From NCBI GenBank assembly GCA_003212795.1, contig QCOV01000003.1, forward strand, positions 78,676-142,675: DNA of 64,000 nucleotides. Direction: 5' to 3'. Shown in pieces: positions 5,984 to 44,630 of this stretch. Each line of letters opens with the position of its first letter. The stretch's first letter is position 1. Made by a program: the position numbers and the translations under genes. This stretch comes from OCS116 cluster bacterium AG-435-F03 (GTDB lineage: Bacteria > Pseudomonadota > Alphaproteobacteria > MED-G09). Below the pieces are notes generated by a model that was given only the letters and a program-made list of their open reading frames with translations, made no database searches and was not told where the DNA came from.

Positions 5984-6813
5984 ACTTCTTGCCCCAAACC
6001 CATAGTAACTTTATCTTTTATTTTAATTTTTTCAGAGAGTATTGATTTATCTTTAATCCAATCAATTAATTCTAATTCGCCATCTAAATGCTCGACTAAG
6101 GCTGTGCATGACTCTACCCAATCTCCAGTATTTATATATAAAATATCTTCATACATTTTCATCTCAGCATGATGAACATGCCCACAAATCACACCATCTA
6201 CACCTCTTTTTTTTCCATCTTGAACAACTTTATTGCTAAAATCTGAAACAAACTGTACCGCTCTTTTGACCTTTAATTTTAGCCAAGCTGAAATTGACCA
6301 ATAATTTAATCCGAATTTTGAGCGCCACCTATTTATTTTAGTATTAAGACCAAGAACAAAGACATAAAGCATATCTCCTATTGTTGCTATCCATGGAGCT
6401 TTAACGCAAATATCGTCATATATATCACCATGAATTAATAAAAACTTTCTTCCATCAATAGATTCGTAAATTAATTCATTTTGAATATTTATTGATGAAA
6501 AATTACATTTATCAAATGACCTTAGGTCCTCATCATGATTCCCTGGAATATAAACTACATTAGTTCCTTCATTTGCTTTTTTTAGAATTATATCAACTAC
6601 AATAGAATGCTTATTTGGCCAATACCAAGATTTCTTTAATCTCCAACCATCAAAAATATCACCTAACAAATAAATATTTTCTGATTCTGTATTATTTAAG
6701 AAATCTATTAAATAATCAACTTTACACCCTCTAGTACCAAGATGAATATCAGAGATAAATATACTCTTATAATTTTTTTTTGTAGTTAGTTTTTCTTTTA
6801 CAGATTTAAGCAT
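5980..6813 (-). CDS. plcP: PlcP-type phospholipase C (LpxH-like metallophosphoesterase)
   Basis: SDIHLG, GDIFDGW, GNHDE, HGD, CGHVHH, NTGDWVESCTALVE; upstream Pho box and downstream GT4 gene. Confidence 0.85.
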   Translation of the reverse strand: MLKSVKEKLTTKKNYKSIFISDIHLGTRGCKVDYLIDFLNNTESENIYLLGDIFDGWRLKKSWYWPNKHSIVVDIILKKANEGTNVVYIPGNHDEDLRSFDKCNFSSINIQNELIYESIDGRKFLLIHGDIYDDICVKAPWIATIGDMLYVFVLGLNTKINRWRSKFGLNYWSISAWLKLKVKRAVQFVSDFSNKVVQDGKKRGVDGVICGHVHHAEMKMYEDILYINTGDWVESCTALVEHLDGELELIDWIKDKSILSEKIKIKDKVTMGLGQEV

Positions 6814-6852
6814 AACAAATTCTTTTTATAGAACTTTATTTGATCTGATTTC

Positions 6853-6870
6853 GTGACACTAGAATGACAG
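6853..6870 (-). promoter_or_regulatory. Pho box upstream of plcP
   Basis: Minus strand CTGTCAT-TCTA-GTGTCAC, an 11-bp direct repeat about 40 bp before the start. Confidence 0.85.
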
Positions 6871-6891
6871 TCTTATTAAAAATTTATAATT

Positions 6892-8061
6892 TTATATTTG
6901 TTTAAAATGTTTAGAGAGTTTTAGCCCTTGTTTCTGATAGTTAGAGCCTATTGACGATCCATAAGACCTTTCAGGTAGTTCTAGAAGCCTTTCATAAATC
7001 AATCTTCCAACAATTTGTGAATCCTCAAGGATGAATGGTACTTCCCAACTCCTAATTTCCAAAACAGCTTTAGACCCTTTACCTTCTGATGAATTGTGAC
7101 CAAAACCTGGATCGAAAAAACCAGCATAATGAACCCTGAATTCACCTACTGATGGTTTAAACGGCACCATTTCAGCAGCATGACTTGGAGGAATAGCAAT
7201 AGATTCAGATGAAGATAAAATATAAAACTCTCCAGGATCAAGAATAATTCTTTGACCTTCAGTTGCAAAAACAGGATCCCAATACTTTTCCATATCATAG
7301 GCATCCTTTTTATCTATATCTATTAAACCAGCATGCCTCTTTGCTTTCCAGCCAACTATGTCTTCTGCAGCCTCTCCTTTTAGGTCAACAGATAATGCTA
7401 GGCCCTCAGATATATTAACCTTTCCATCATAAACAATATTGTCTTCTGAGTGTAATCTCTTAAGCTCAGTATCAGAATTTGTTGGTCTTCCTCGCCTAAA
7501 TCTCATTTGACTTAATCGTGAACCTTTTCTGACTATCACTGGGAAAGTTCGAGGTGAAATCTCAAGCCAAAGATGACCTTTATAACCATTTGGTATTTTG
7601 TCAAATTCATGAGTTCCATCACATATTAATCTTGTAAAAACATCTATTCTTCCAGTAGAACTTTTAGGATTTGCAACAGCAATTATTCTTTCTGGAAGGG
7701 ATAAAGCCTCCATTAATGGAACAAGATATACGCAACCAGTCTCAAGAACGGCACCATCTGTAATATCAATTCTGTGTAGAGCAAAATCTTTTAATTTTCT
7801 ATTCACAGAACCACCTGATGGTAAAAAACTTGCCCTAATTCTATATGCTGTATCTGCTAATCTTAAATCTAGGCTCGCAGGTTGAATTTGTTCATCATTT
7901 ATTTCTCCTTGAGACCAAATTTCACCATTTTCAATCATCGAGCGGATCATTTGACCCGGCAGCACTCCAGAAATCTGAGCTTTTTGTCCTGGTGCTCCAT
8001 CAAAGTCACTAGTTGTCTCTTTTGTGTCAGGAAATAAATCTGGTATTTTCTTTTCTGCCAT
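6892..8061 (-). CDS. dcd: dCTP deaminase (long alphaproteobacterial type)
   Basis: QIQPASLDLRL, ANPKSSTGRID, GEFRVHYAGFFDPGFG, NYQKQGLKLSKHF. Confidence 0.9.
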   Translation of the reverse strand: MAEKKIPDLFPDTKETTSDFDGAPGQKAQISGVLPGQMIRSMIENGEIWSQGEINDEQIQPASLDLRLADTAYRIRASFLPSGGSVNRKLKDFALHRIDITDGAVLETGCVYLVPLMEALSLPERIIAVANPKSSTGRIDVFTRLICDGTHEFDKIPNGYKGHLWLEISPRTFPVIVRKGSRLSQMRFRRGRPTNSDTELKRLHSEDNIVYDGKVNISEGLALSVDLKGEAAEDIVGWKAKRHAGLIDIDKKDAYDMEKYWDPVFATEGQRIILDPGEFYILSSSESIAIPPSHAAEMVPFKPSVGEFRVHYAGFFDPGFGHNSSEGKGSKAVLEIRSWEVPFILEDSQIVGRLIYERLLELPERSYGSSIGSNYQKQGLKLSKHFKQI

Positions 8062-8132: not shown

Positions 8133-9590
8133 ATGAATATTGCAACAATTGATATAAGACCCGTTCTATCAGTCTTGGGATTTTTTCTCCTAGGATTGTC
8201 TGCCACTATGTTTGTTCCAGCAATAGTTGATCTGATCTATAATAATTCTGGATGGGATAATTTTGTTATCAGCTCAATTATTACTAGTTTTGTTGGATTA
8301 ATGTTCTTTCTAGTATCAAGAGGGAATAAAAGTGAATTAAATACAAAAAGTGCTTTTCTTCTTGTTACCTTAAGCTGGATTATTTTATCAATTTTCTCTT
8401 CTGTTCCTTTTCTTCTTTCAACGAATGTTACAGGTATAACTAATGCATTTTTTGAGTCTGTATCAGGATTAACAACTACTGGCTCTACAATAATTGATGA
8501 TATTGAAAGTACTTCAGAAGGTATAATTGTTTGGAGAAGCCTTTTACAGTGGTTAGGCGGTATTGGTATAATTGTCAGTGCTATTTCTATTCTTCCTAGT
8601 CTTGGCGTCGGTGGTATGCAGTTGTTTAAATTGGAAAGCTCTGACTCGACAGAAAAACTAATGCCGAGAACAGCAAATTTAGCTACCGAAATAATTTTTT
8701 TATATATTTTATTAACATCAATATGTGCGACACTTTATTGGGTCTGCGGTCTATCTTTTTTCGACTCTGCAAATCATGCAATGACAACTATTGCTACAGG
8801 TGGCTTCTCATCTAATTCTCAATCAATAGGGGGTTATAATAATTTCTCAATAGAATATGTTTGTATTCTTTTTATGATTCTCTCTAGCCTTCCATTTGTT
8901 CTTTATCTCAAAACACTTAGAGGTAAGCCTTTAGCGTTGATTAAAGATGAGCAAGTAACTGGTTTCTTTAAAACTTTATTCTTAGCAATCATTTTAATCG
9001 CAGTTTTTTTATTGGTTCAAAATAATTTTGAATTACAGATTCCTCTTAGACAAATTATATTCAATGTTACATCAATTCTAACTGGCACTGGATACACTTC
9101 AACATCATATGATCAATGGGGAACTCCAGCAATTATCGTGTTTCTTGCTATTACATTTATTGGAGGCTGTGCAGGTTCAACTACTTGCGGGTTAAAGGTT
9201 TTCAGACTACAGGTCATATTAAAAAATTCTGGTCAGGTTATGAATAAATTAATAAGCCCAAATCGTGTGACCAATCATAAATATAATGGCGAAAACTTAA
9301 CTTTAGAAATCGTTGAATCTGTTATGACATTTTTATTTATATTCTTCGTAACTTTCGTAATTATTTCATTTCTTCTCTCATTATCTGGTCTGGATATTTT
9401 AACATCAGTATCTGCAGCTGCTACATCGATATCAAATGTTGGACCAGGGCTTGGAAATTTAATTGGACCAGCTTACAGCTTCGAAGAGATACCAGAATTT
9501 TCAAAGTGGGTTTTATCTTTTGGCATGCTGGCTGGGAGATTAGAGTTTTTAACTTTTCTTGTTATTTTTAGTCGTTCTTTTTGGAAATAA
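8133..9590 (+). CDS. trkH: TrkH potassium uptake permease
   Basis: FFESVSGLTTTG, QWLGGIG, TIATGGFS, GGCAGSTTCG, SNVGPG, GRLE. Confidence 0.92.
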   Translation: MNIATIDIRPVLSVLGFFLLGLSATMFVPAIVDLIYNNSGWDNFVISSIITSFVGLMFFLVSRGNKSELNTKSAFLLVTLSWIILSIFSSVPFLLSTNVTGITNAFFESVSGLTTTGSTIIDDIESTSEGIIVWRSLLQWLGGIGIIVSAISILPSLGVGGMQLFKLESSDSTEKLMPRTANLATEIIFLYILLTSICATLYWVCGLSFFDSANHAMTTIATGGFSSNSQSIGGYNNFSIEYVCILFMILSSLPFVLYLKTLRGKPLALIKDEQVTGFFKTLFLAIILIAVFLLVQNNFELQIPLRQIIFNVTSILTGTGYTSTSYDQWGTPAIIVFLAITFIGGCAGSTTCGLKVFRLQVILKNSGQVMNKLISPNRVTNHKYNGENLTLEIVESVMTFLFIFFVTFVIISFLLSLSGLDILTSVSAAATSISNVGPGLGNLIGPAYSFEEIPEFSKWVLSFGMLAGRLEFLTFLVIFSRSFWK

Positions 9591-36312: not shown

Positions 36313-36388
36313 GGGGCCATAGCTCAGTTGGGAGAGCGCCTGCTTTGCAAGCAGGAGGTCGTCGGTTCGATCCCGTCTGGCTCCACCA
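36313..36388 (+). tRNA. tRNA-Ala(TGC)
   Basis: GGGGCCA/TGGCTCC acceptor stem with G3:U70, anticodon TGC, GGTTCGA T-loop, encoded CCA. Confidence 0.97.
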
Positions 36389-38606: not shown

Positions 38607-39932
38607 TTATGAACTTTTCATCACTAAAGCCTCGGCAAAAGGCTTTCTTCCAAAATAAAATATTAGAAAAGATATTGGCCCACAAATTAAAAATATTGTG
38701 GCCATAGATAAATCTATAGCCATTTCATTTTTGAAAACCTTATCCGTAAAAAATGCTACCACCATTGGGCCTAATCCGTATCCAGTAATATTTACTGTAA
38801 AGACATACAATCCTGATACAACGCCTCTATACTGATTTGGGGTGATATTTTGAAGCGATGTTGCAAACAAAGCCAGAGGAAGTGTAATAAAAAAACTAGT
38901 TATAAAAATACCAATCAAGACAGTGCTTGAACTTAGACTTAGGAATGTAATGGGACCTATTATAGTTAAAGCAATTGCTGTAACGATACAAACAACGATA
39001 GTAGCCGCATTAACATTTAACTTAGTTAGATATTTTTCGATAACGGGACCTGAAACAACACCCAAAGATCCTGCAAACAAAGCTACTAGGCCATATTGAT
39101 CTCCAATTCTTGTATGCTCCCATCCATGTATTCTATGTAAAAAAGTTGGAACCCAAGATTGTACGCCATATAAAAGAACAATTATAAAAGCTGATCCTAT
39201 TAAAAGTGGTATATAGGCTCCAATATTTTTAATTACATAAGAAAAAACATCTCTAATAGAATCTTTTTCATCTTTATCAGTAACTATTACTTCTTTTCTT
39301 ACAGGATCTTTCAGGGCAAACATAAATAAGCCTAAGATCACTCCAGGTACTGCAATTATAAGAAATATAATTTGCCACGGTTGAACAATAATACTTTCAA
39401 ATAAAGTTACTGGTTCATTATAAATTCTTAGAATCTGAGCTCCAAATAGCAAAGATAGGCCTTGGCCTATATAAGGACCCATTAAGTATATACTCATTGG
39501 AAAGCTTCTTTTCTCAATTGGGAATAGATCTGAGATAATTGACCATGATGCAGGCGTTAGAGCTGCTTCACCAGCACCTACACCTGATCTTGATATAACT
39601 AATTGCCAAGAATTTTTTGAAAGACCACAAGCTGCAGTCGCTACACTCCAAATAATTATACCACCTATAAGCACTCGAACGCGGTTTACCTTATCAACAA
39701 TTCTTCCAAAAGGAATACTAAATATTATGTAAGCAAGAACAAAACCCCATCCCTGGATAAATGATATCTCAAAATCAGTAAGGCCCATATCCTCTTTGAT
39801 TGGAACAACAAGATAGTTAATCATTTGCCTATCAATAAATGAAATAATATAGGCAAATAAAAGAATAGAAGTAAAAAACCAAGCATAAATTGGTTTTGGC
39901 CATGAAGTAGAATTAGTCAATTTTTTCCCCAA
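38607..39932 (-). CDS. MFS transporter (spinster-like)
   Basis: SFIDRQ, PIKEDMGL, GVGAGEA, SIISDLFP; about 12 TM segments; start TTG 39932 or TTG 39920. Confidence 0.88.
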   Translation of the reverse strand: MGKKLTNSTSWPKPIYAWFFTSILLFAYIISFIDRQMINYLVVPIKEDMGLTDFEISFIQGWGFVLAYIIFSIPFGRIVDKVNRVRVLIGGIIIWSVATAACGLSKNSWQLVISRSGVGAGEAALTPASWSIISDLFPIEKRSFPMSIYLMGPYIGQGLSLLFGAQILRIYNEPVTLFESIIVQPWQIIFLIIAVPGVILGLFMFALKDPVRKEVIVTDKDEKDSIRDVFSYVIKNIGAYIPLLIGSAFIIVLLYGVQSWVPTFLHRIHGWEHTRIGDQYGLVALFAGSLGVVSGPVIEKYLTKLNVNAATIVVCIVTAIALTIIGPITFLSLSSSTVLIGIFITSFFITLPLALFATSLQNITPNQYRGVVSGLYVFTVNITGYGLGPMVVAFFTDKVFKNEMAIDLSMATIFLICGPISFLIFYFGRKPFAEALVMKSS

Positions 39933-39933
39933 A

Positions 39934-39964
39934 AAAAAACCCTACCAAGATAGTAGGGTTTTTT
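39934..39964. terminator. Intrinsic terminator closing the secreted-protein array
   Basis: AAAAAACCCTAC-CAAGATA-GTAGGGTTTTTT with T tracts on both strands. Confidence 0.85.
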
Positions 39965-39990
39965 ATAAAAGTTAAGTTTCTTTATTTAAT

Positions 39991-40680
39991 TTATTTTTCC
40001 CAACTCTTTACTAAGTACACTAAAGAACGAGACATTACTTTTCTAAATTTGTTAGCCCTTTGAAGGTAATTTTGTCCTTCTGCTGTAGCTAATGAGCTAT
40101 CAAGATTAGACATAGCTTCTTCAAGTGAAGAGCCATTAATAACAACATAATGAGTTCGATTATCAACACCAGTAAATGTATCTGCAAATACGGTAATGCT
40201 TCCATTTGGGTTGGCACTATTCAAAAACTTACCAAGACTTTTTACAAAGGCAGCATTATCTTTTGCTTTTATATCAATTAAAATTCCTACTGGAGCATTT
40301 GGGTCTTGTTCACCAGCTGAAAGAATAGGTGTACCAGCTCCATTAAGAACCCAAGTAACATTTTGATTTAATGTTGATAAAAGTGCTTGGCCTTCTGCAG
40401 AACCATTTACAATACTGTTATTTTTTTCAAATTGATCAGGTCCTGAGTGTTCGGCAACCATGCAATGGGTTATATTATTCTCTCCGTTTAATGGAAATGC
40501 ATATAGCCTATGCGTAGACATACCGTCTGAAGAAGATGAGTTTAAAAATCCATCAAATGCACTTACTACATTATTAGCTGTTTCAAGAGCATTGAAGCAG
40601 TAATATGCGTGTAAAGGTGCTGCCTTTACATTTCCAGTAAAAATAAAAAATGCAAAAGCAATAGTTAAAATATATTTCAT
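39991..40680 (-). CDS. Secreted hypothetical protein with two internal repeats (array member 5, divergent)
   Basis: Signal peptide ending VKA; repeat G-x-x-N-x-TH...AEGQ occurs twice; AGGAG RBS. Confidence 0.8.
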   Translation of the reverse strand: MKYILTIAFAFFIFTGNVKAAPLHAYYCFNALETANNVVSAFDGFLNSSSSDGMSTHRLYAFPLNGENNITHCMVAEHSGPDQFEKNNSIVNGSAEGQALLSTLNQNVTWVLNGAGTPILSAGEQDPNAPVGILIDIKAKDNAAFVKSLGKFLNSANPNGSITVFADTFTGVDNRTHYVVINGSSLEEAMSNLDSSLATAEGQNYLQRANKFRKVMSRSLVYLVKSWEK

Positions 40681-40703
40681 TTTTTTCTCCTTTAAATAAA
40701 ACT

Positions 40704-41495
40704 TTAATTTGGCCTGTTATAAACTTTTTCATGCATTAGCATTGGGTCACTGCATTTAGCATATTCAGTTTCATATTCATCTCGAAATCTCCAACCTCCC
40801 TCTGCAGCTTCAACTTTTTTAGATTGCATTACTGATTCCATATCAGGGAATAAGACAACATGTGCAAAAGTTGGATAATTAGCTCCTCCAAGTAGTGGTA
40901 CCATTGTTAACCAACCAATTGCACCATTTGGATTTTCTTCCATTCTTGCAGCAGCCTTATTATGAAAAGCTATCAAGTCATCAGGGCTTTTCTCGTCACG
41001 AATACTACACCAATTCCATTCAGCATATCGACTATCGCCTTCATTTAAAGCTTCTTCATTTGCATAATTAAAGTAAGCAGAATTCATCTTCATGTAACAT
41101 GTAGAAACCTCACCCCATTCATTAAGTATGTCTTGACCCTCTTTTGTTTCAGTTAATTTATCCCAGCCCTTTCCATGCGTTTCGAAAGGTCCAGCCATAA
41201 ATTCTACAAAATCATAAGATGGCGGGTTATCAAAATCACCATGTTGAAAATGAGGAGTTTGAATAGCAAGAAATGTTTCTACACCATTCTTTTTTGCCCA
41301 ATTGAAGTATCTTTCGTTAAGAGTCTCGTATCGCTCCATTGAGATACCTTCATTTAATCTGCAAATATTTGCTTGAATAGCAAAAGCAGAATCGGATGTA
41401 ATCCCAGCTCCAAGCCTATTATCTTGAGCATTTACGGGATTAAAAATTAAGAAAATTGTAAATACTAAACTAAATAATAATATATTTTTTTTCAT
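40704..41495 (-). CDS. Secreted hypothetical protein, 4-Cys two-repeat family (array member 4)
   Basis: Signal peptide ending VNA; YDFVE, WNWC, IGW, FAH, GGW shared with neighbours. Confidence 0.85.
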   Translation of the reverse strand: MKKNILLFSLVFTIFLIFNPVNAQDNRLGAGITSDSAFAIQANICRLNEGISMERYETLNERYFNWAKKNGVETFLAIQTPHFQHGDFDNPPSYDFVEFMAGPFETHGKGWDKLTETKEGQDILNEWGEVSTCYMKMNSAYFNYANEEALNEGDSRYAEWNWCSIRDEKSPDDLIAFHNKAAARMEENPNGAIGWLTMVPLLGGANYPTFAHVVLFPDMESVMQSKKVEAAEGGWRFRDEYETEYAKCSDPMLMHEKVYNRPN

Positions 41496-41509
41496 TATTT
41501 TTCCTTTTA

Positions 41510-42286
41510 TTATTGAGGTAATCTATTGAGAACTTGCACATCATATAATTCTTCACCTCTACAAGTTGCATATTGTTTTTCATAATCTCGGTAATGTTTC
41601 CAACCACCTTGAGCGATTGTTTTTTGATGCTTCATTGAGGCTTTATTATCAGGAAAAATTATAATATGAGCAAATTGTCCTGGTGCACTTGCTCCTCCAA
41701 GTCGAGGAATAATGCCTGCCCAACCTATGATACCCTGATCATTGCCCTCAAGATTTTTAGCCATTTCAGAATGTTTTTGCAAAACCTCTTCAGCACTAAC
41801 ATTATCATTGATAGTGCACCAATTCCAAGTTGCGACTCTTTCGTCAGCTTTTGCTAGAGCATCTTCATCTGACCACAAAGTAACTCCTGTTCCCATTTTA
41901 GGATAGCAATCCGCTGCAGCTTGCCATTGTGCATTTAGTTTTTGACCTTCCTTAGAGTCCAACCATAAATCCCAGGCTTCACCTGAAGTTTCATGAGTAG
42001 AACCTAATATTTCTAGGAAATCATAGGTTAATGGGTTACCAGTTGTTCCATGAGAAAATAATGGAAAGTGACGAACATAAAATGTTTCTACATTATTCTT
42101 TTTTGACCATTTCACATAATCTTGTGTAACAGCATTATATTCTTTTAATGATACACCCTCTTTAAGTTTGCATACATTAACTTGAACATTAGAAACATTT
42201 GGAAGCTCTTCATAATGATCATCTGAGTAGACATCAAAAGAAAAGACAAAAAATCCAGTAATAAAAAAGGTTAATAATTTTTTCAT
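41510..42286 (-). CDS. Secreted hypothetical protein, 4-Cys two-repeat family (array member 3)
   Basis: Signal peptide then DDH; clearly paralogous to 42300..43073. Confidence 0.85.
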   Translation of the reverse strand: MKKLLTFFITGFFVFSFDVYSDDHYEELPNVSNVQVNVCKLKEGVSLKEYNAVTQDYVKWSKKNNVETFYVRHFPLFSHGTTGNPLTYDFLEILGSTHETSGEAWDLWLDSKEGQKLNAQWQAAADCYPKMGTGVTLWSDEDALAKADERVATWNWCTINDNVSAEEVLQKHSEMAKNLEGNDQGIIGWAGIIPRLGGASAPGQFAHIIIFPDNKASMKHQKTIAQGGWKHYRDYEKQYATCRGEELYDVQVLNRLPQ

Positions 42287-42299
42287 GCTTATTCTCCTG

Positions 42300-43073
42300 T
42301 TAACTATTTGGATTATTAATTACTTGTTCAATCATAAAGGCATCACCGCGACATGTTGCAAAATCTTTTTGATAATCTCTATAATCTTTCCAACCACCAT
42401 CAGATTGAGCTTGCTGATATATTTGTGCCGCTTCAACATTTGGATATACAGCAATATGGGCAAAATCACCTGGAGCTTGATCAGTTCCTATTCTTGGAAA
42501 TAAATTAGCCCAACCAATAATCCCTAATGAATCTTCTTCAAGAATTTTTGCTCGTCTATCATGCTCGGCTATCAAATCTTCATATGATACGCCATCATTT
42601 AAAGAACACCAATTCCATGCAACGATTCTATTATTATCTTTATTAATTTCATCTTGGTTTACATATAAAGGTACTGCCGCACCCTGCTTAACTCTGCAAT
42701 CAGCAAGTTTTTGCCATTTTTCGTTTAATTTTTGACCATCACTTGTACCAAGCCATTTATCCCAACCTTTCCCACTAACAGAATGTGTTGACCACAAAAG
42801 TTCCATAAAATCATATCCTGCATCAAACCAACTATCTTGTGGATATAAAGGTGTTTGTCTTGCAAAAAATAATTCTACATCATGTTTTTTTGACCATTTA
42901 ACATAATCATCAATCATTTCATCATATTGCTTGATTGAAGTATTTCCTTTCAAAGTACAAAGTTGTACTTGAACGTTAAAAACTTCTGTTCCGTCAGATG
43001 CATGATCATCAGCAAAAACAAAATTATTAAAACCAAAAAAAGCTATAAAGCCAAAAGTTAAATATTTTTTCAT
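42300..43073 (-). CDS. Secreted hypothetical protein, 4-Cys two-repeat family (array member 2)
   Basis: VFA-DDH; NVQVQLC, YDFME, ADC, WNWC, FAH, GGW, ATC. Confidence 0.85.
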   Translation of the reverse strand: MKKYLTFGFIAFFGFNNFVFADDHASDGTEVFNVQVQLCTLKGNTSIKQYDEMIDDYVKWSKKHDVELFFARQTPLYPQDSWFDAGYDFMELLWSTHSVSGKGWDKWLGTSDGQKLNEKWQKLADCRVKQGAAVPLYVNQDEINKDNNRIVAWNWCSLNDGVSYEDLIAEHDRRAKILEEDSLGIIGWANLFPRIGTDQAPGDFAHIAVYPNVEAAQIYQQAQSDGGWKDYRDYQKDFATCRGDAFMIEQVINNPNS

Positions 43074-43090
43074 AATCGTATTCTCCTTAA

Positions 43091-43861
43091 CTATTCATCA
43101 CCATTACGTAATAAATTTGTTGTGTAAATTCTTGGGCTATCACAATCTACAACTGAACCCCAAGTATCTTGAAGGGCCGTATTGCCAGGTTGATAACCAG
43201 CTTGTCTAGCTTTGCCCATTTCTTCATAATTAGACCAACCTGCACCAACTTTAATATCCCAATCGGCATCCAATTCATTACCAGCATCAGGAACAAATAT
43301 AGCAATGAGAGGGTCAGCGCCTGTTGTTTCAATATACTTATTAAAATCTCCTGCTGCTTTCATTAAATCAGCCATATTTTTACCATCTCTAAATTTACAA
43401 TTTGCGAGTTGGAAAGGATTATTTTTAGTTTTATCTTGATCCCAATCAACTTGTCTTGCTGGTAATACAGCAAATATAGATCTTGGACTACATGTTGCCA
43501 CTTCATTAAATTTAAGTCCTATTGTTTGTTCACCTTCTTGAACCCAGTTTTCCATTGTGTTTCCGTAGTTCTCAAAATTCGGGCTAAATCCAAACCATAT
43601 ATAATCGAATGATAGCATTCCTTGACTTACTGCAAATGGCGCCATTGACCATGCAGAGTAATTTAGATCCTTTCTATCGGCCCATTTATCCCATTCTTTA
43701 ACGACTTTATTTAAATCATTTGCAGATTTTCCATCATTAAAAGAGCATGCTAGCATTTCTGCTACAGCAGGGCCTACTGGTTGATGATCATCAGCATAAG
43801 TTAAATTAGTGGTTAATAAAAAAATTAGCGATAAAGCAAAAATAGATATAGATTTATTCAT
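43091..43861 (-). CDS. Secreted hypothetical protein, 4-Cys two-repeat family (array member 1)
   Basis: TYA-DDH; CSFNDGK...ATC and CKFRDGK...VDC internal repeat. Confidence 0.85.
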   Translation of the reverse strand: MNKSISIFALSLIFLLTTNLTYADDHQPVGPAVAEMLACSFNDGKSANDLNKVVKEWDKWADRKDLNYSAWSMAPFAVSQGMLSFDYIWFGFSPNFENYGNTMENWVQEGEQTIGLKFNEVATCSPRSIFAVLPARQVDWDQDKTKNNPFQLANCKFRDGKNMADLMKAAGDFNKYIETTGADPLIAIFVPDAGNELDADWDIKVGAGWSNYEEMGKARQAGYQPGNTALQDTWGSVVDCDSPRIYTTNLLRNGDE

Positions 43862-43905
43862 TAGAAACTCCCTTATTTAAAACCCAAGCAAAAAACCTTG
43901 CATTA

Positions 43906-43922
43906 TTGAGAATCGTTATCAA
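43906..43922. promoter_or_regulatory. Fur-family box upstream of the secreted-protein array
   Basis: TTGAGAAT-C-GTTATCAA, near-palindromic; 14 of 19 positions match GATAATGATAATCATTATC by hand alignment. Confidence 0.6.
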
Positions 43923-43993
43923 CAATTTTTTTTTATTTATTATTATTTTCTTACACACATTCAGTATAAAAAAATATTTTTTATACATAATAT

Positions 43994-44002
43994 TGTGGAT
44001 AA
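43994..44002 (-). promoter_or_regulatory. Consensus DnaA box
   Basis: TGTGGATAA (TTATCCACA on the minus strand) in an AT-rich intergenic region with three one-mismatch boxes nearby. Confidence 0.35.
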
Positions 44003-44090
44003 CTTTTATTTTTGAACTAAAGAACAATATTTTATTTCCTAAAGCATATTTTTTTATTTAAAATTCTATCGTCAAAAAAGGAAAAGAAAA

Positions 44091-44630
44091 ATGGAAAATC
44101 TCAGGAGAATTATTACTGGTCATAATGAAGATGGAAAATCAATAATTTCTATTGATGGTCCTCCTGCAAGAATATTAGGTGAAGATGTTGGAGGATTATT
44201 TGAAATCTGGAATACTGATGGAGAACAAATAAATTCTCTAGATAATAAAGATAGAGCTGATATCGATGTTATTTTATCACCCCCTAAAAATGGGACAAAG
44301 TTTAGATACTTTGCTATCAAACCAACACCTGAAGGTATACCAAGAGAAAAACTGGAAGAAGCTACAGCTAGGGCATTCGAATTAATGGGTGCAGCGCATG
44401 AAAGAGTTGATACATCAAGACACCCAGCAATGCATAAAACAAAAACTATTGATTACATAATTTTGTTAAGCGGTGATGTAACTCTATTACTTGATGAAGA
44501 TGAAGTGAGACTCAAACCATTTAATGTTGTTGTACAAAGAGGTACAAATCATGCGTGGGTTAATAACGGTAATGAGCCAGCATTGCTTATAGCGGTTTTA
44601 ATAGATAGTGATTTGAAAGATAAAGCTTAA
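44091..44630 (+). CDS. Cupin domain protein
   Basis: RRIITGH, MHKTKTIDY, VVQRGTNHAWVN. Confidence 0.85.
   Translation: MENLRRIITGHNEDGKSIISIDGPPARILGEDVGGLFEIWNTDGEQINSLDNKDRADIDVILSPPKNGTKFRYFAIKPTPEGIPREKLEEATARAFELMGAAHERVDTSRHPAMHKTKTIDYIILLSGDVTLLLDEDEVRLKPFNVVVQRGTNHAWVNNGNEPALLIAVLIDSDLKDKA

Follow-up and report, generated by a model that had tools for sequence, protein, structure and literature searches.

An array of exported tandem ferredoxin-like proteins, several with a predicted Asp-X-His start, in a marine alphaproteobacterium

The best-known members of the dimeric alpha+beta barrel fold, i.e., the ABM monooxygenases, the sulfur oxygenase reductase (SOR) and the Cld and DyP proteins, are enzymes. 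The ABM enzymes are cytoplasmic and EfeB is periplasmic; the underlying ferredoxin-like fold has a sheet of strand order 4-1-3-2 in which all strands are antiparallel. Here, we describe an array of five genes, labelled G1 to G5 in order of transcription, that occupies positions 43861..39991 on the minus strand of a 64,000-nucleotide stretch (the window) of contig QCOV01000003.1 from OCS116 cluster bacterium AG-435-F03, a member of the PS1 clade. A sequence-only reading of the window had taken these genes for a set of secreted two-repeat proteins within a metal-regulated scavenging or processing system. The account given below of the family, its fold and its operon is in our judgement very probably correct.

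Among proteins of known structure the best match is 2pgc, an uncharacterised marine-metagenome protein from structural genomics, that shares with the array proteins the tandem ferredoxin-like barrel and the marine origin. Nevertheless, no sequence relation to the family is detectable, since profile searches of the PDB came back empty and the identity is 11%. The entries 3f44 and 3mcs, two-domain ABM-like 'putative monooxygenases', have the same tandem beta-alpha-beta-beta-alpha-beta architecture. The ABM family itself (PF03992) differs in that its model does not match these proteins, which are predicted to be exported and to carry Cys staples; likewise NIPSNAP, which belongs to the same fold superfamily, matches none of G1 to G5. 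SOR and the Cld/HemQ/DyP/EfeB group are also tandem ferredoxin-like barrels; the family contrasts with them in having neither conserved His or metal-binding residues nor a sequence match. A likeness of another kind is to serum albumin, whose amino-terminal Cu(II)- and Ni(II)-binding (ATCUN) site is Asp-Ala-His: G1 to G3 begin with Asp-Asp-His after predicted cleavage, with the difference that signal peptidase would here create the site on a bacterial periplasmic family. The parts of the literature that were available on 3f44, 3mcs and 2pgc, on PS1-clade genomes, and on ATCUN in combination with periplasmic proteins or signal peptides hold nothing on this family, nor do those on ATCUN mention any such bacterial periplasmic family.

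The gene array and its protein family

The gaps between consecutive genes, taken from the coordinates of the open reading frames (ORFs; Table 1), are 17, 13, 14 and 23 nt, and direct reading places a Shine-Dalgarno site 7–10 nt 5' of each ATG (GGGAG, AAGGAG, AGGAG, AAGGA and AAGGAG, from G1 to G5). Also by direct reading, the five N-termini have the look of Sec signal peptides, in which a hydrophobic core lies between a Lys-rich start and a small-x-small site, and contain neither a twin-Arg motif nor a lipobox Cys. Signal peptides and cleavage sites were assigned by reading together with a crude -3/-1 rule; a crude signal-peptide rule flags G1 to G3. The products of G1 to G5 are predicted to be soluble periplasmic proteins exported through Sec. 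Given the common strand, the gaps of 13–23 nt and the single terminator 3' of G5, the best explanation is that the five genes would form one transcription unit. The RNA of the terminator region (39925-39990, minus strand) folds into a hairpin followed by U9 with -18.1 kcal/mol (z -3.15), and 0 of 200 shuffled sequences were as stable. A consensus terminator scan of 39800-44200 omitted this hairpin and its T9, a site that the RNA folding confirms. Contigs from marine metatranscriptomes (three studies) cover all five genes with 90–99% identity, and the G5/G4, G3/G2 (two contigs) and G2/G1 junctions are bridged by RNA-library contigs, the G4/G3 junction not being bridged; this cover fits co-expression in the sea. 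The layout proposed from the letters alone, i.e., five co-oriented genes 13–23 nt apart, each with a Shine-Dalgarno site and a Sec signal peptide, closed by a terminator, was found again in all its parts.

The five proteins are related to different degrees. In BLAST comparisons, G3 is 47% identical to G2 (E 1e-89), 40% to G4 (E 6e-67) and 22% to G1 (E 4e-7, N half only), and no similarity is found between G5 and either G3 or G1. G1 matches the family profile at 5e-12, and its match extends over the full length after its inclusion in a broader profile. For the more distant relations two alignments were used, one of 58 family members (A3) and one of 22 G5 homologues (A4). When A4 was compared to A3 with hhalign, a match of 90.4% was obtained (E 1.4e-6, 174 columns) with the first Cys aligned; G5 is a remote relative of the G1–G4 family. 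In the same way, the N and C halves of A3 align with each other (hhalign 98.9%, E 1.5e-17, 91 columns), including the Cys residues at both ends. The two halves are homologous and result from an internal duplication.

The cysteines are the most constant residues of the family. G1 to G4 have exactly four each, at 39/124/155/240, 39/126/156/241, 39/127/157/242 and 45/133/163/248, respectively, and all four are invariant in 58/58 members of A3; apart from them only one Gly is invariant, and a G, a D and two P residues are nearly so. No His is invariant or near-invariant in this alignment. G2, G3 and G4 have in common the motifs YDFxE, WNWC, IGW, FAH and GGW, whereas G5, diverged and with Cys at 28 and 73, shows its double repeat as STHRLY...SAEGQ and RTHYVV...TAEGQ; this arrangement of cysteines and motifs is the one that the sequence-only reading had recognised. 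Homologues with a single domain (125–146 aa) keep one Cys pair at the same places. Such single-domain forms were observed at five loci (L023-L027, in genomes G373, G108, G023, G180 and G020); they have a signal peptide and a single Cys pair, and none of them has a Pfam match. Also in G373, a TAA stop divides one tandem gene, leaving two ORFs of 125 and 126 aa.

A model of G3 obtained with AlphaFold2 (AF2) from an 8-sequence alignment (pLDDT 68) shows the succession beta-alpha-beta-beta-alpha-beta twice, preceded by disordered residues 1–32 (pLDDT <50). In this model, the first strand ends at Cys39 and the fourth begins at Cys127, and Cys157 and Cys242 have the same places in the second domain. 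Because of the sheet order 4-1-3-2 and the antiparallel strands, the Cys residues of strands 1 and 4 face each other, and a cross-strand disulfide between these strands within each repeat of G1 to G4 is plausible; the positions proposed in the sequence-only reading thus fit the model of G3, the pairing itself being deduced from them. Pairing within the domains is supported by the invariance of the four Cys in 58/58 members, by the single pairs of the single-domain forms and by the DsbB and DsbA-like genes present in the same genome. In G5, Cys28 (strand 1) and Cys73 (strand 3) would fit the same disulfide logic in domain 1 only.

When the G3 model was compared to the PDB with Foldseek, 3f44, 3mcs and 2pgc were found at probability 1.00 (2pgc with E 4.6e-6), followed by Cld/HemQ, SOR and DyP. 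An independent comparison with VIA-align gave for 2pgc a Z score of 16.2 (root-mean-square deviation 3.3 over 203 of 206 residues, 11% identity), followed by SOR with Z 15.6, 3mcs and 3f44 with Z 14.8 each, 3gn6 with Z 13.4 and 5f9p with Z 12.5; the Cld/HemQ/DyP/EfeB proteins reach Z 7-9, and single-domain ABM/Dabb/EthD-like entries, with Z 6–7, stay far below the tandem proteins. The AF2 model of G5 (pLDDT 62) repeats this topology, and its three best entries are again 3f44, 3mcs and 2pgc, at TM values of only 0.33–0.38, so that for G5 the support is limited to the local fold. The shared topology of the two models, the Foldseek results and the Z scores of 14.8-16.2 bear out the tandem ferredoxin-like fold that had been suggested earlier, and the assignment of the family to the dimeric alpha+beta barrel superfamily is supported at the level of these models.

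No named family accounts for these proteins, as had been stated from the sequence. Scans of G1 to G5 with Pfam and NCBIfam gave no match (NCBIfam noise only), and searches of PDB sequences with profiles that included A3 and A4 returned only chance-level rows (E >=0.36), so that no confident match to a characterised family appeared in these three collections. The ABM model matches neither G1 to G5 (E up to 10) nor, with E up to 0.1, any member of A3. NIPSNAP (PF07978) is the sole Pfam family with any signal, in 2/58 relatives (best E 6.8e-5) and 0/5 window proteins. In a protein-language-model Atlas, unnamed clusters come first, with 'putative ABM' and NIPSNAP only as leads; NIPSNAP, as the nearest named cluster, scores 0.92 with G5 and 0.89 with G3, again at the level of a lead. 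The NIPSNAP/ABM likeness that had been proposed is the nearest lead from sequence, and the view of G1 to G5 as an unnamed family within the dimeric alpha+beta barrel superfamily is supported.

In an exhaustive profile search over 1.84 billion cluster representatives, 203 family proteins were within E 1e-3; of these, 96 were also within 1e-10 and 27 within 1e-30. Nearly all full-length representatives have 244–283 aa, and the 57 of them that were listed all have a signal-peptide-like N-terminus and four Cys; among 8000 candidates scored with the A3 profile no longer fused form was found, which is weak evidence. The family is small, and its members come from the marine PS1 clade and from a part of the marine Gammaproteobacteria. 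At the level of genomes (468 searched), it occurs in 15/24 genomes of the host's own taxonomic family, many of them incomplete (7/10 in genus g1, 0/3 in g2 and 7/10 in g3), and in 7/401 genomes of an even sample of the class, four of these seven coming from that same family. The host genome has 1.44 Mb, is 95.8% complete and has a G+C content of approx. 32%. Outside its taxonomic family, the relatives are in marine gammaproteobacterial metagenome-assembled genomes (MAGs; K189A clade and 'Pseudomonadales'), five of which have 12, 5, 3, 6 and 6 dispersed matches, single-domain forms included; the 12 matches are within one genome of 2.1 Mb.

In the PS1 clade the order of the array is strict. In 13/13 loci, of which three are on cut contigs, one to four family genes are followed by exactly one G5-type gene, which is always the last. 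A major facilitator superfamily (MFS) gene comes after it wherever the contig extends that far, and in most loci a cupin and a Rieske gene are found on the other side of the array. Between strains, the content of the slots changes: in G005 and G006, the flanking genes are 95–99% identical to those of the window, but the proteins in slots 1 and 2 are only 44–47% identical to G1 and G2, and the G5-type protein of G005 is only 40% identical to G5. A maximum likelihood tree was made with 51 full-length rows (31 from PS1 and 20 gammaproteobacterial), leaving out single-domain forms and weak matches. In this tree, a single PS1 clade (27 rows, support 100/99) unites the G2, G3 and G4 types and stands beside a gammaproteobacterial clade. 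The G1 types, with two alleles, are on a deep branch of their own, and the slot 2 proteins of G005 and G006 come from another paralog lineage than those of G000 (the host genome) and G007. Divergent slots between near-identical flanks, occupied by different paralog lineages, indicate that the array is a strain-variable cassette site, in agreement with the diversified set of paralogs envisaged before. Cassette-like replacement is seen when 39991-43861 is compared with loci L031 and L032.

The predicted Asp-X-His start of the mature proteins

The feature that appears most informative in these sequences had been overlooked in the earlier reading. According to the -3/-1 rule, cleavage would occur between TYA and DDH in G1, VFA and DDH in G2, and VYS and DDH in G3. 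The ATCUN site for Cu(II)/Ni(II) is defined as NH2-X-X-His (PMC12509749). G1 to G3 agree with this definition in their predicted mature form, with His at position 3 and a residue other than Pro at position 2; G4 and G5, which begin with QDN and APLH after predicted cleavage, do not have His at that position.

The start was scored as a small residue followed by D or E, any residue and H, within residues 13–36. The pattern is found in 32/58 members of A3 (DDH 14, DHH 6, DNH 6, DGH 4, DAH 1 and EHH 1) and in 18/33 gammaproteobacterial paralogs, as compared with 3/232 non-family ORFs of the same loci, taken as a control, and 0/22 G5-type proteins (A4). Among PS1 paralogs 23/31 match, and two more start with NDH and AHH, as judged by eye; the remaining six, without His, are all within the G4-type clade. 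Both G1 alleles keep DDH at only 44% identity, and His26, within DDH, is the sole histidine of G1. In the host genome, 10/268 ORFs with a crude signal peptide have X-X-H at the candidate cleavage site; those with D-x-H are G1, G2, G3 and one secreted protein of 231 aa, and in at least four of the remaining six the signal peptide is apparently spurious. We infer that a flexible tail with a tip that chelates metal may be present in about half of the family, including G1 to G3, and N-terminal binding of copper or nickel comes close to being probable without quite reaching it.

Similar starts were seen in two other places. The 231-aa protein is encoded outside the window (G000 C1:511878-512573) among thiolase-like and other catabolic genes, has the predicted mature start DGH, and does not match the profile of either family. 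In L053, from a K189A-clade MAG, two secreted proteins of 156 and 151 aa (6694-7164 and 8220-8675) have ...FAGHHE after the signal peptide, with His near the mature N-terminus.

A proposed role and its alternatives

The explanation that we consider best, and which as a whole has about equal chances of holding or failing, is that the array encodes periplasmic binding modules, many of them tipped by an ATCUN-type Cu/Ni site, which would work with a G5-type partner. Each protein would be a fused pair of beta-alpha-beta-beta-alpha-beta domains without catalytic activity. A disulfide would link strands 1 and 4 in each domain of G1 to G4; in G5, only domain 1 would have such a staple, from strand 1 to strand 3. 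Cleavage by signal peptidase would expose in G1 to G3 a flexible tail beginning with Asp-Asp-His, i.e., an NH2-X-X-His site at which Cu(II) or Ni(II) would be chelated. The barrel, variable and rich in Trp, may offer a second surface, specific to each paralog, for a ligand or a partner, and the G5-type protein, which is never absent, and the MFS transporter encoded next to it may handle the same cargo or signal. That the proteins are binders rather than enzymes is somewhat favoured. A further step, to be taken only tentatively, is that the strain-variable Asp-X-His twin-barrel sets and their G5-type partner could constitute a periplasmic system for Cu(II)/Ni(II) capture or buffering in streamlined ocean bacteria. 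If so, these would be a new kind of trace-metal handling protein for ocean microbiology and a natural example of an ATCUN tag made by signal-peptide cleavage. Both the PS1 clade and those marine Gammaproteobacteria in which the family occurs are common oligotrophic plankton with small genomes, and a genome of 1.44 Mb devotes to it five adjacent, expressed genes; since it is kept at such a cost, the family is probably important in the periplasm. The Asp-X-His start is a cheap, direct and falsifiable handle on an unnamed family.

Several observations weigh against the proposal of metal-tipped binding modules. Both AF2 models are of modest confidence, and the cleavage site rests on the crude -3/-1 rule only. 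His is missing from the start of 26/58 members, of all 13 PS1 G5-type proteins and of the seven-member G4-type clade except for one protein, which starts with AHH; for this reason the Asp-X-His tag cannot be the core function of the family. No copper or nickel homeostasis gene is found near the array. Two gammaproteobacterial copies have RND pumps next to them, which were rejected as candidates for CusA/CzcA, since the multidrug RND models give the best scores and all scores are below the cut-offs. The MFS gene is behind the terminator, and its link to the array holds within one bacterial family and not in Gammaproteobacteria. The contigs from RNA libraries may derive in part from DNA and are no proof of a single transcript. 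Finally, catalysis has to be kept in mind because the best-known members of the fold are enzymes.

The main rival, unlikely in our opinion, follows from this last point: the proteins would be periplasmic cofactor-free, ABM-like oxygenases or isomerases, each paralog acting on a different small organic substrate, with the product imported by the MFS transporter. The closest folds do include the putative two-domain monooxygenases 3f44 and 3mcs, the anthrone-oxidase-like 5f9p, SnoaB and SOR, the neighbours of the array are in part catabolic (a GbcA-like Rieske oxygenase, a cupin, GFA and an enoyl-CoA hydratase), some gammaproteobacterial neighbours resemble P450 and CoA-transferase (from N-terminal sequences read by eye only), and the MFS protein is closest to organic-anion symporter subfamilies, below their cut-offs. 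Nevertheless, a conserved His, Tyr, Arg or Asn that could be a common active site was not seen across the 58 members, in which only the four Cys and one Gly are invariant, the ABM model does not recognise them, and the gammaproteobacterial loci have no recurrent neighbour (140 ORFs around the paralogs gave 11 small clusters, none of them over more than two loci). The same lack of conserved pocket residues agrees with the proteins being abundant periplasmic components with no specific ligand (chaperone-like, envelope-buffering or partner-binding) that vary under phage or predator pressure, as does the replacement of slots 1 and 2 by different paralog lineages between nearly identical flanks; however, periplasmic proteins are not directly exposed to phage and the conservation of the D-x-H start speaks for a chemical role, which makes this view improbable. 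Binding or processing of haem, in the manner of Cld/HemQ/DyP/EfeB or IsdG/MhuD/HmoB, is the least credible of the alternatives: hemB is nearby, EfeB is itself periplasmic and there is a likeness of fold to HmoB (Z 9.7), coproheme decarboxylase (Z 9.3), DyP/EfeB (Z 7–8) and MhuD (Z 6.2), but these Z scores are well below those of the non-haem tandem proteins, the proximal haem-ligating His conserved in Cld/HemQ/DyP has no counterpart in the 58-member alignment, and the sole His of G1 is in a disordered tail.

The sequence-only reading had favoured a Fur-regulated pathway for metal scavenging or processing that would link TonB-dependent receptors (TBDRs), the array, the MFS transporter and the methyltransferase. 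The neighbours that it named (MFS, S-adenosylmethionine methyltransferase, two TBDRs and the alpha subunit of a Rieske oxygenase) are present as described, the two TBDRs lie 5–10 kb from the array and are syntenic in relatives, the genome has two Fur-family genes, the AT-rich and partly palindromic element 5' of G1 is conserved in PS1 relatives, and the ATCUN-type tails point to metals. In spite of this, the pathway is improbable as well. By hand count, the element at 43902-43922 has 6 mismatches to the 19-nt Fur consensus of E. coli; no site with <=3 mismatches occurs in the window, 425 sites with <=5 are present in this AT-rich genome, and even the most similar second copy departs from the element at 4 of its 21 positions, so that its identification as a Fur box was rejected. 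The TBDRs do not belong to the unit: between them and the array are the MFS and methyltransferase genes and hemB, tRNA-Ala and yaaA, the last three on the other strand. The methyltransferase, found in genus g1 only, is missing from the six g3 loci. In the five gammaproteobacterial genomes, about three family loci are within 10 kb of a TBDR plug domain according to a hand comparison of coordinates (one paralog, G423:C32, directly adjoins the plug and about two more loci are <=10 kb away), and with one TBDR per 130–190 kb this proximity is about what chance would give. Co-occurrence with the neighbourhood holds in part, for the MFS gene in PS1 loci and not in Gammaproteobacteria, where the TBDRs are not enriched near the family either; the scavenging system built on them is not supported.

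Features and surroundings of the array

The positions of the genes and of the elements around them are given in Table 1.

Table 1. Coordinates of the array and of associated features in the window
Feature	Coordinates	Strand	Description
G1	43861..43091	minus	256 aa; predicted exported tandem ferredoxin-like protein; deep paralog lineage; predicted mature start DDH
G2	43073..42300	minus	257 aa; predicted exported tandem ferredoxin-like protein; 4 Cys; predicted mature start DDH
G3	42286..41510	minus	258 aa; predicted exported tandem ferredoxin-like protein; 4 Cys; predicted mature start DDH; modelled
G4	41495..40704	minus	263 aa; predicted exported tandem ferredoxin-like protein; 4 Cys; predicted mature start QDN, no His
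G5	40680..39991	minus	229 aa; probable diverged tandem ferredoxin-like protein; 2 Cys (28, 73), in repeat 1 only
Intrinsic terminator	39931..39964	minus	3' of G5; A-tract, GC-rich 6-bp CCCTAC/GTAGGG stem, 7-nt loop, T9
AT-rich element, imperfect palindrome ('Fur-type box' of the earlier reading)	43902..43922	minus	40–60 nt 5' of the G1 start; conserved in PS1 relatives
22-nt element (GTTATCCACAATATTATGTATA)	43982..44003	minus	G1/cupin intergenic region; nearly invariant in 9 aligned PS1 genomes of two genera
MFS transporter gene	38607..39932	minus	behind the G5 terminator; follows G5 in PS1 loci
tRNA-Ala(TGC)	36313-36388	plus	between yaaA and hemB

The 22-nt element occurs once in the window (0.02 expected) and contains TTATCCACA, the DnaA-box consensus, a 9-mer that is found 18 times in the genome. 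The element is likely to be a promoter or operator of the divergent G1/cupin region. At the other end of the array, the start of the MFS gene is uncertain because the listed TTG (39930-39932) is inside the T-run of the terminator, and the real start is probably further downstream. The cupin (plus strand) and Rieske oxygenase (minus strand) genes converge with a 4-nt overlap at 44627-44630, and the Rieske protein is closest to the glycine-betaine monooxygenase GbcA (E 1.6e-42), far below the cut-off of the model. The tRNA-Ala(TGC) accounts for the very high depth of its bin in all four RNA runs.

In Gammaproteobacteria the surroundings are different. BLAST with the MFS, cupin, Rieske and G5 proteins of the window found no match beside the gammaproteobacterial copies, and the search of whole genomes gave a G5-type match in one of the five. 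A local profile search of 265 ORFs detected five weak G5-type-like ORFs (E 5e-6 to 4e-10), each at <=4 kb from a family gene; in L080, such an ORF has the same order and strand as in the window array.

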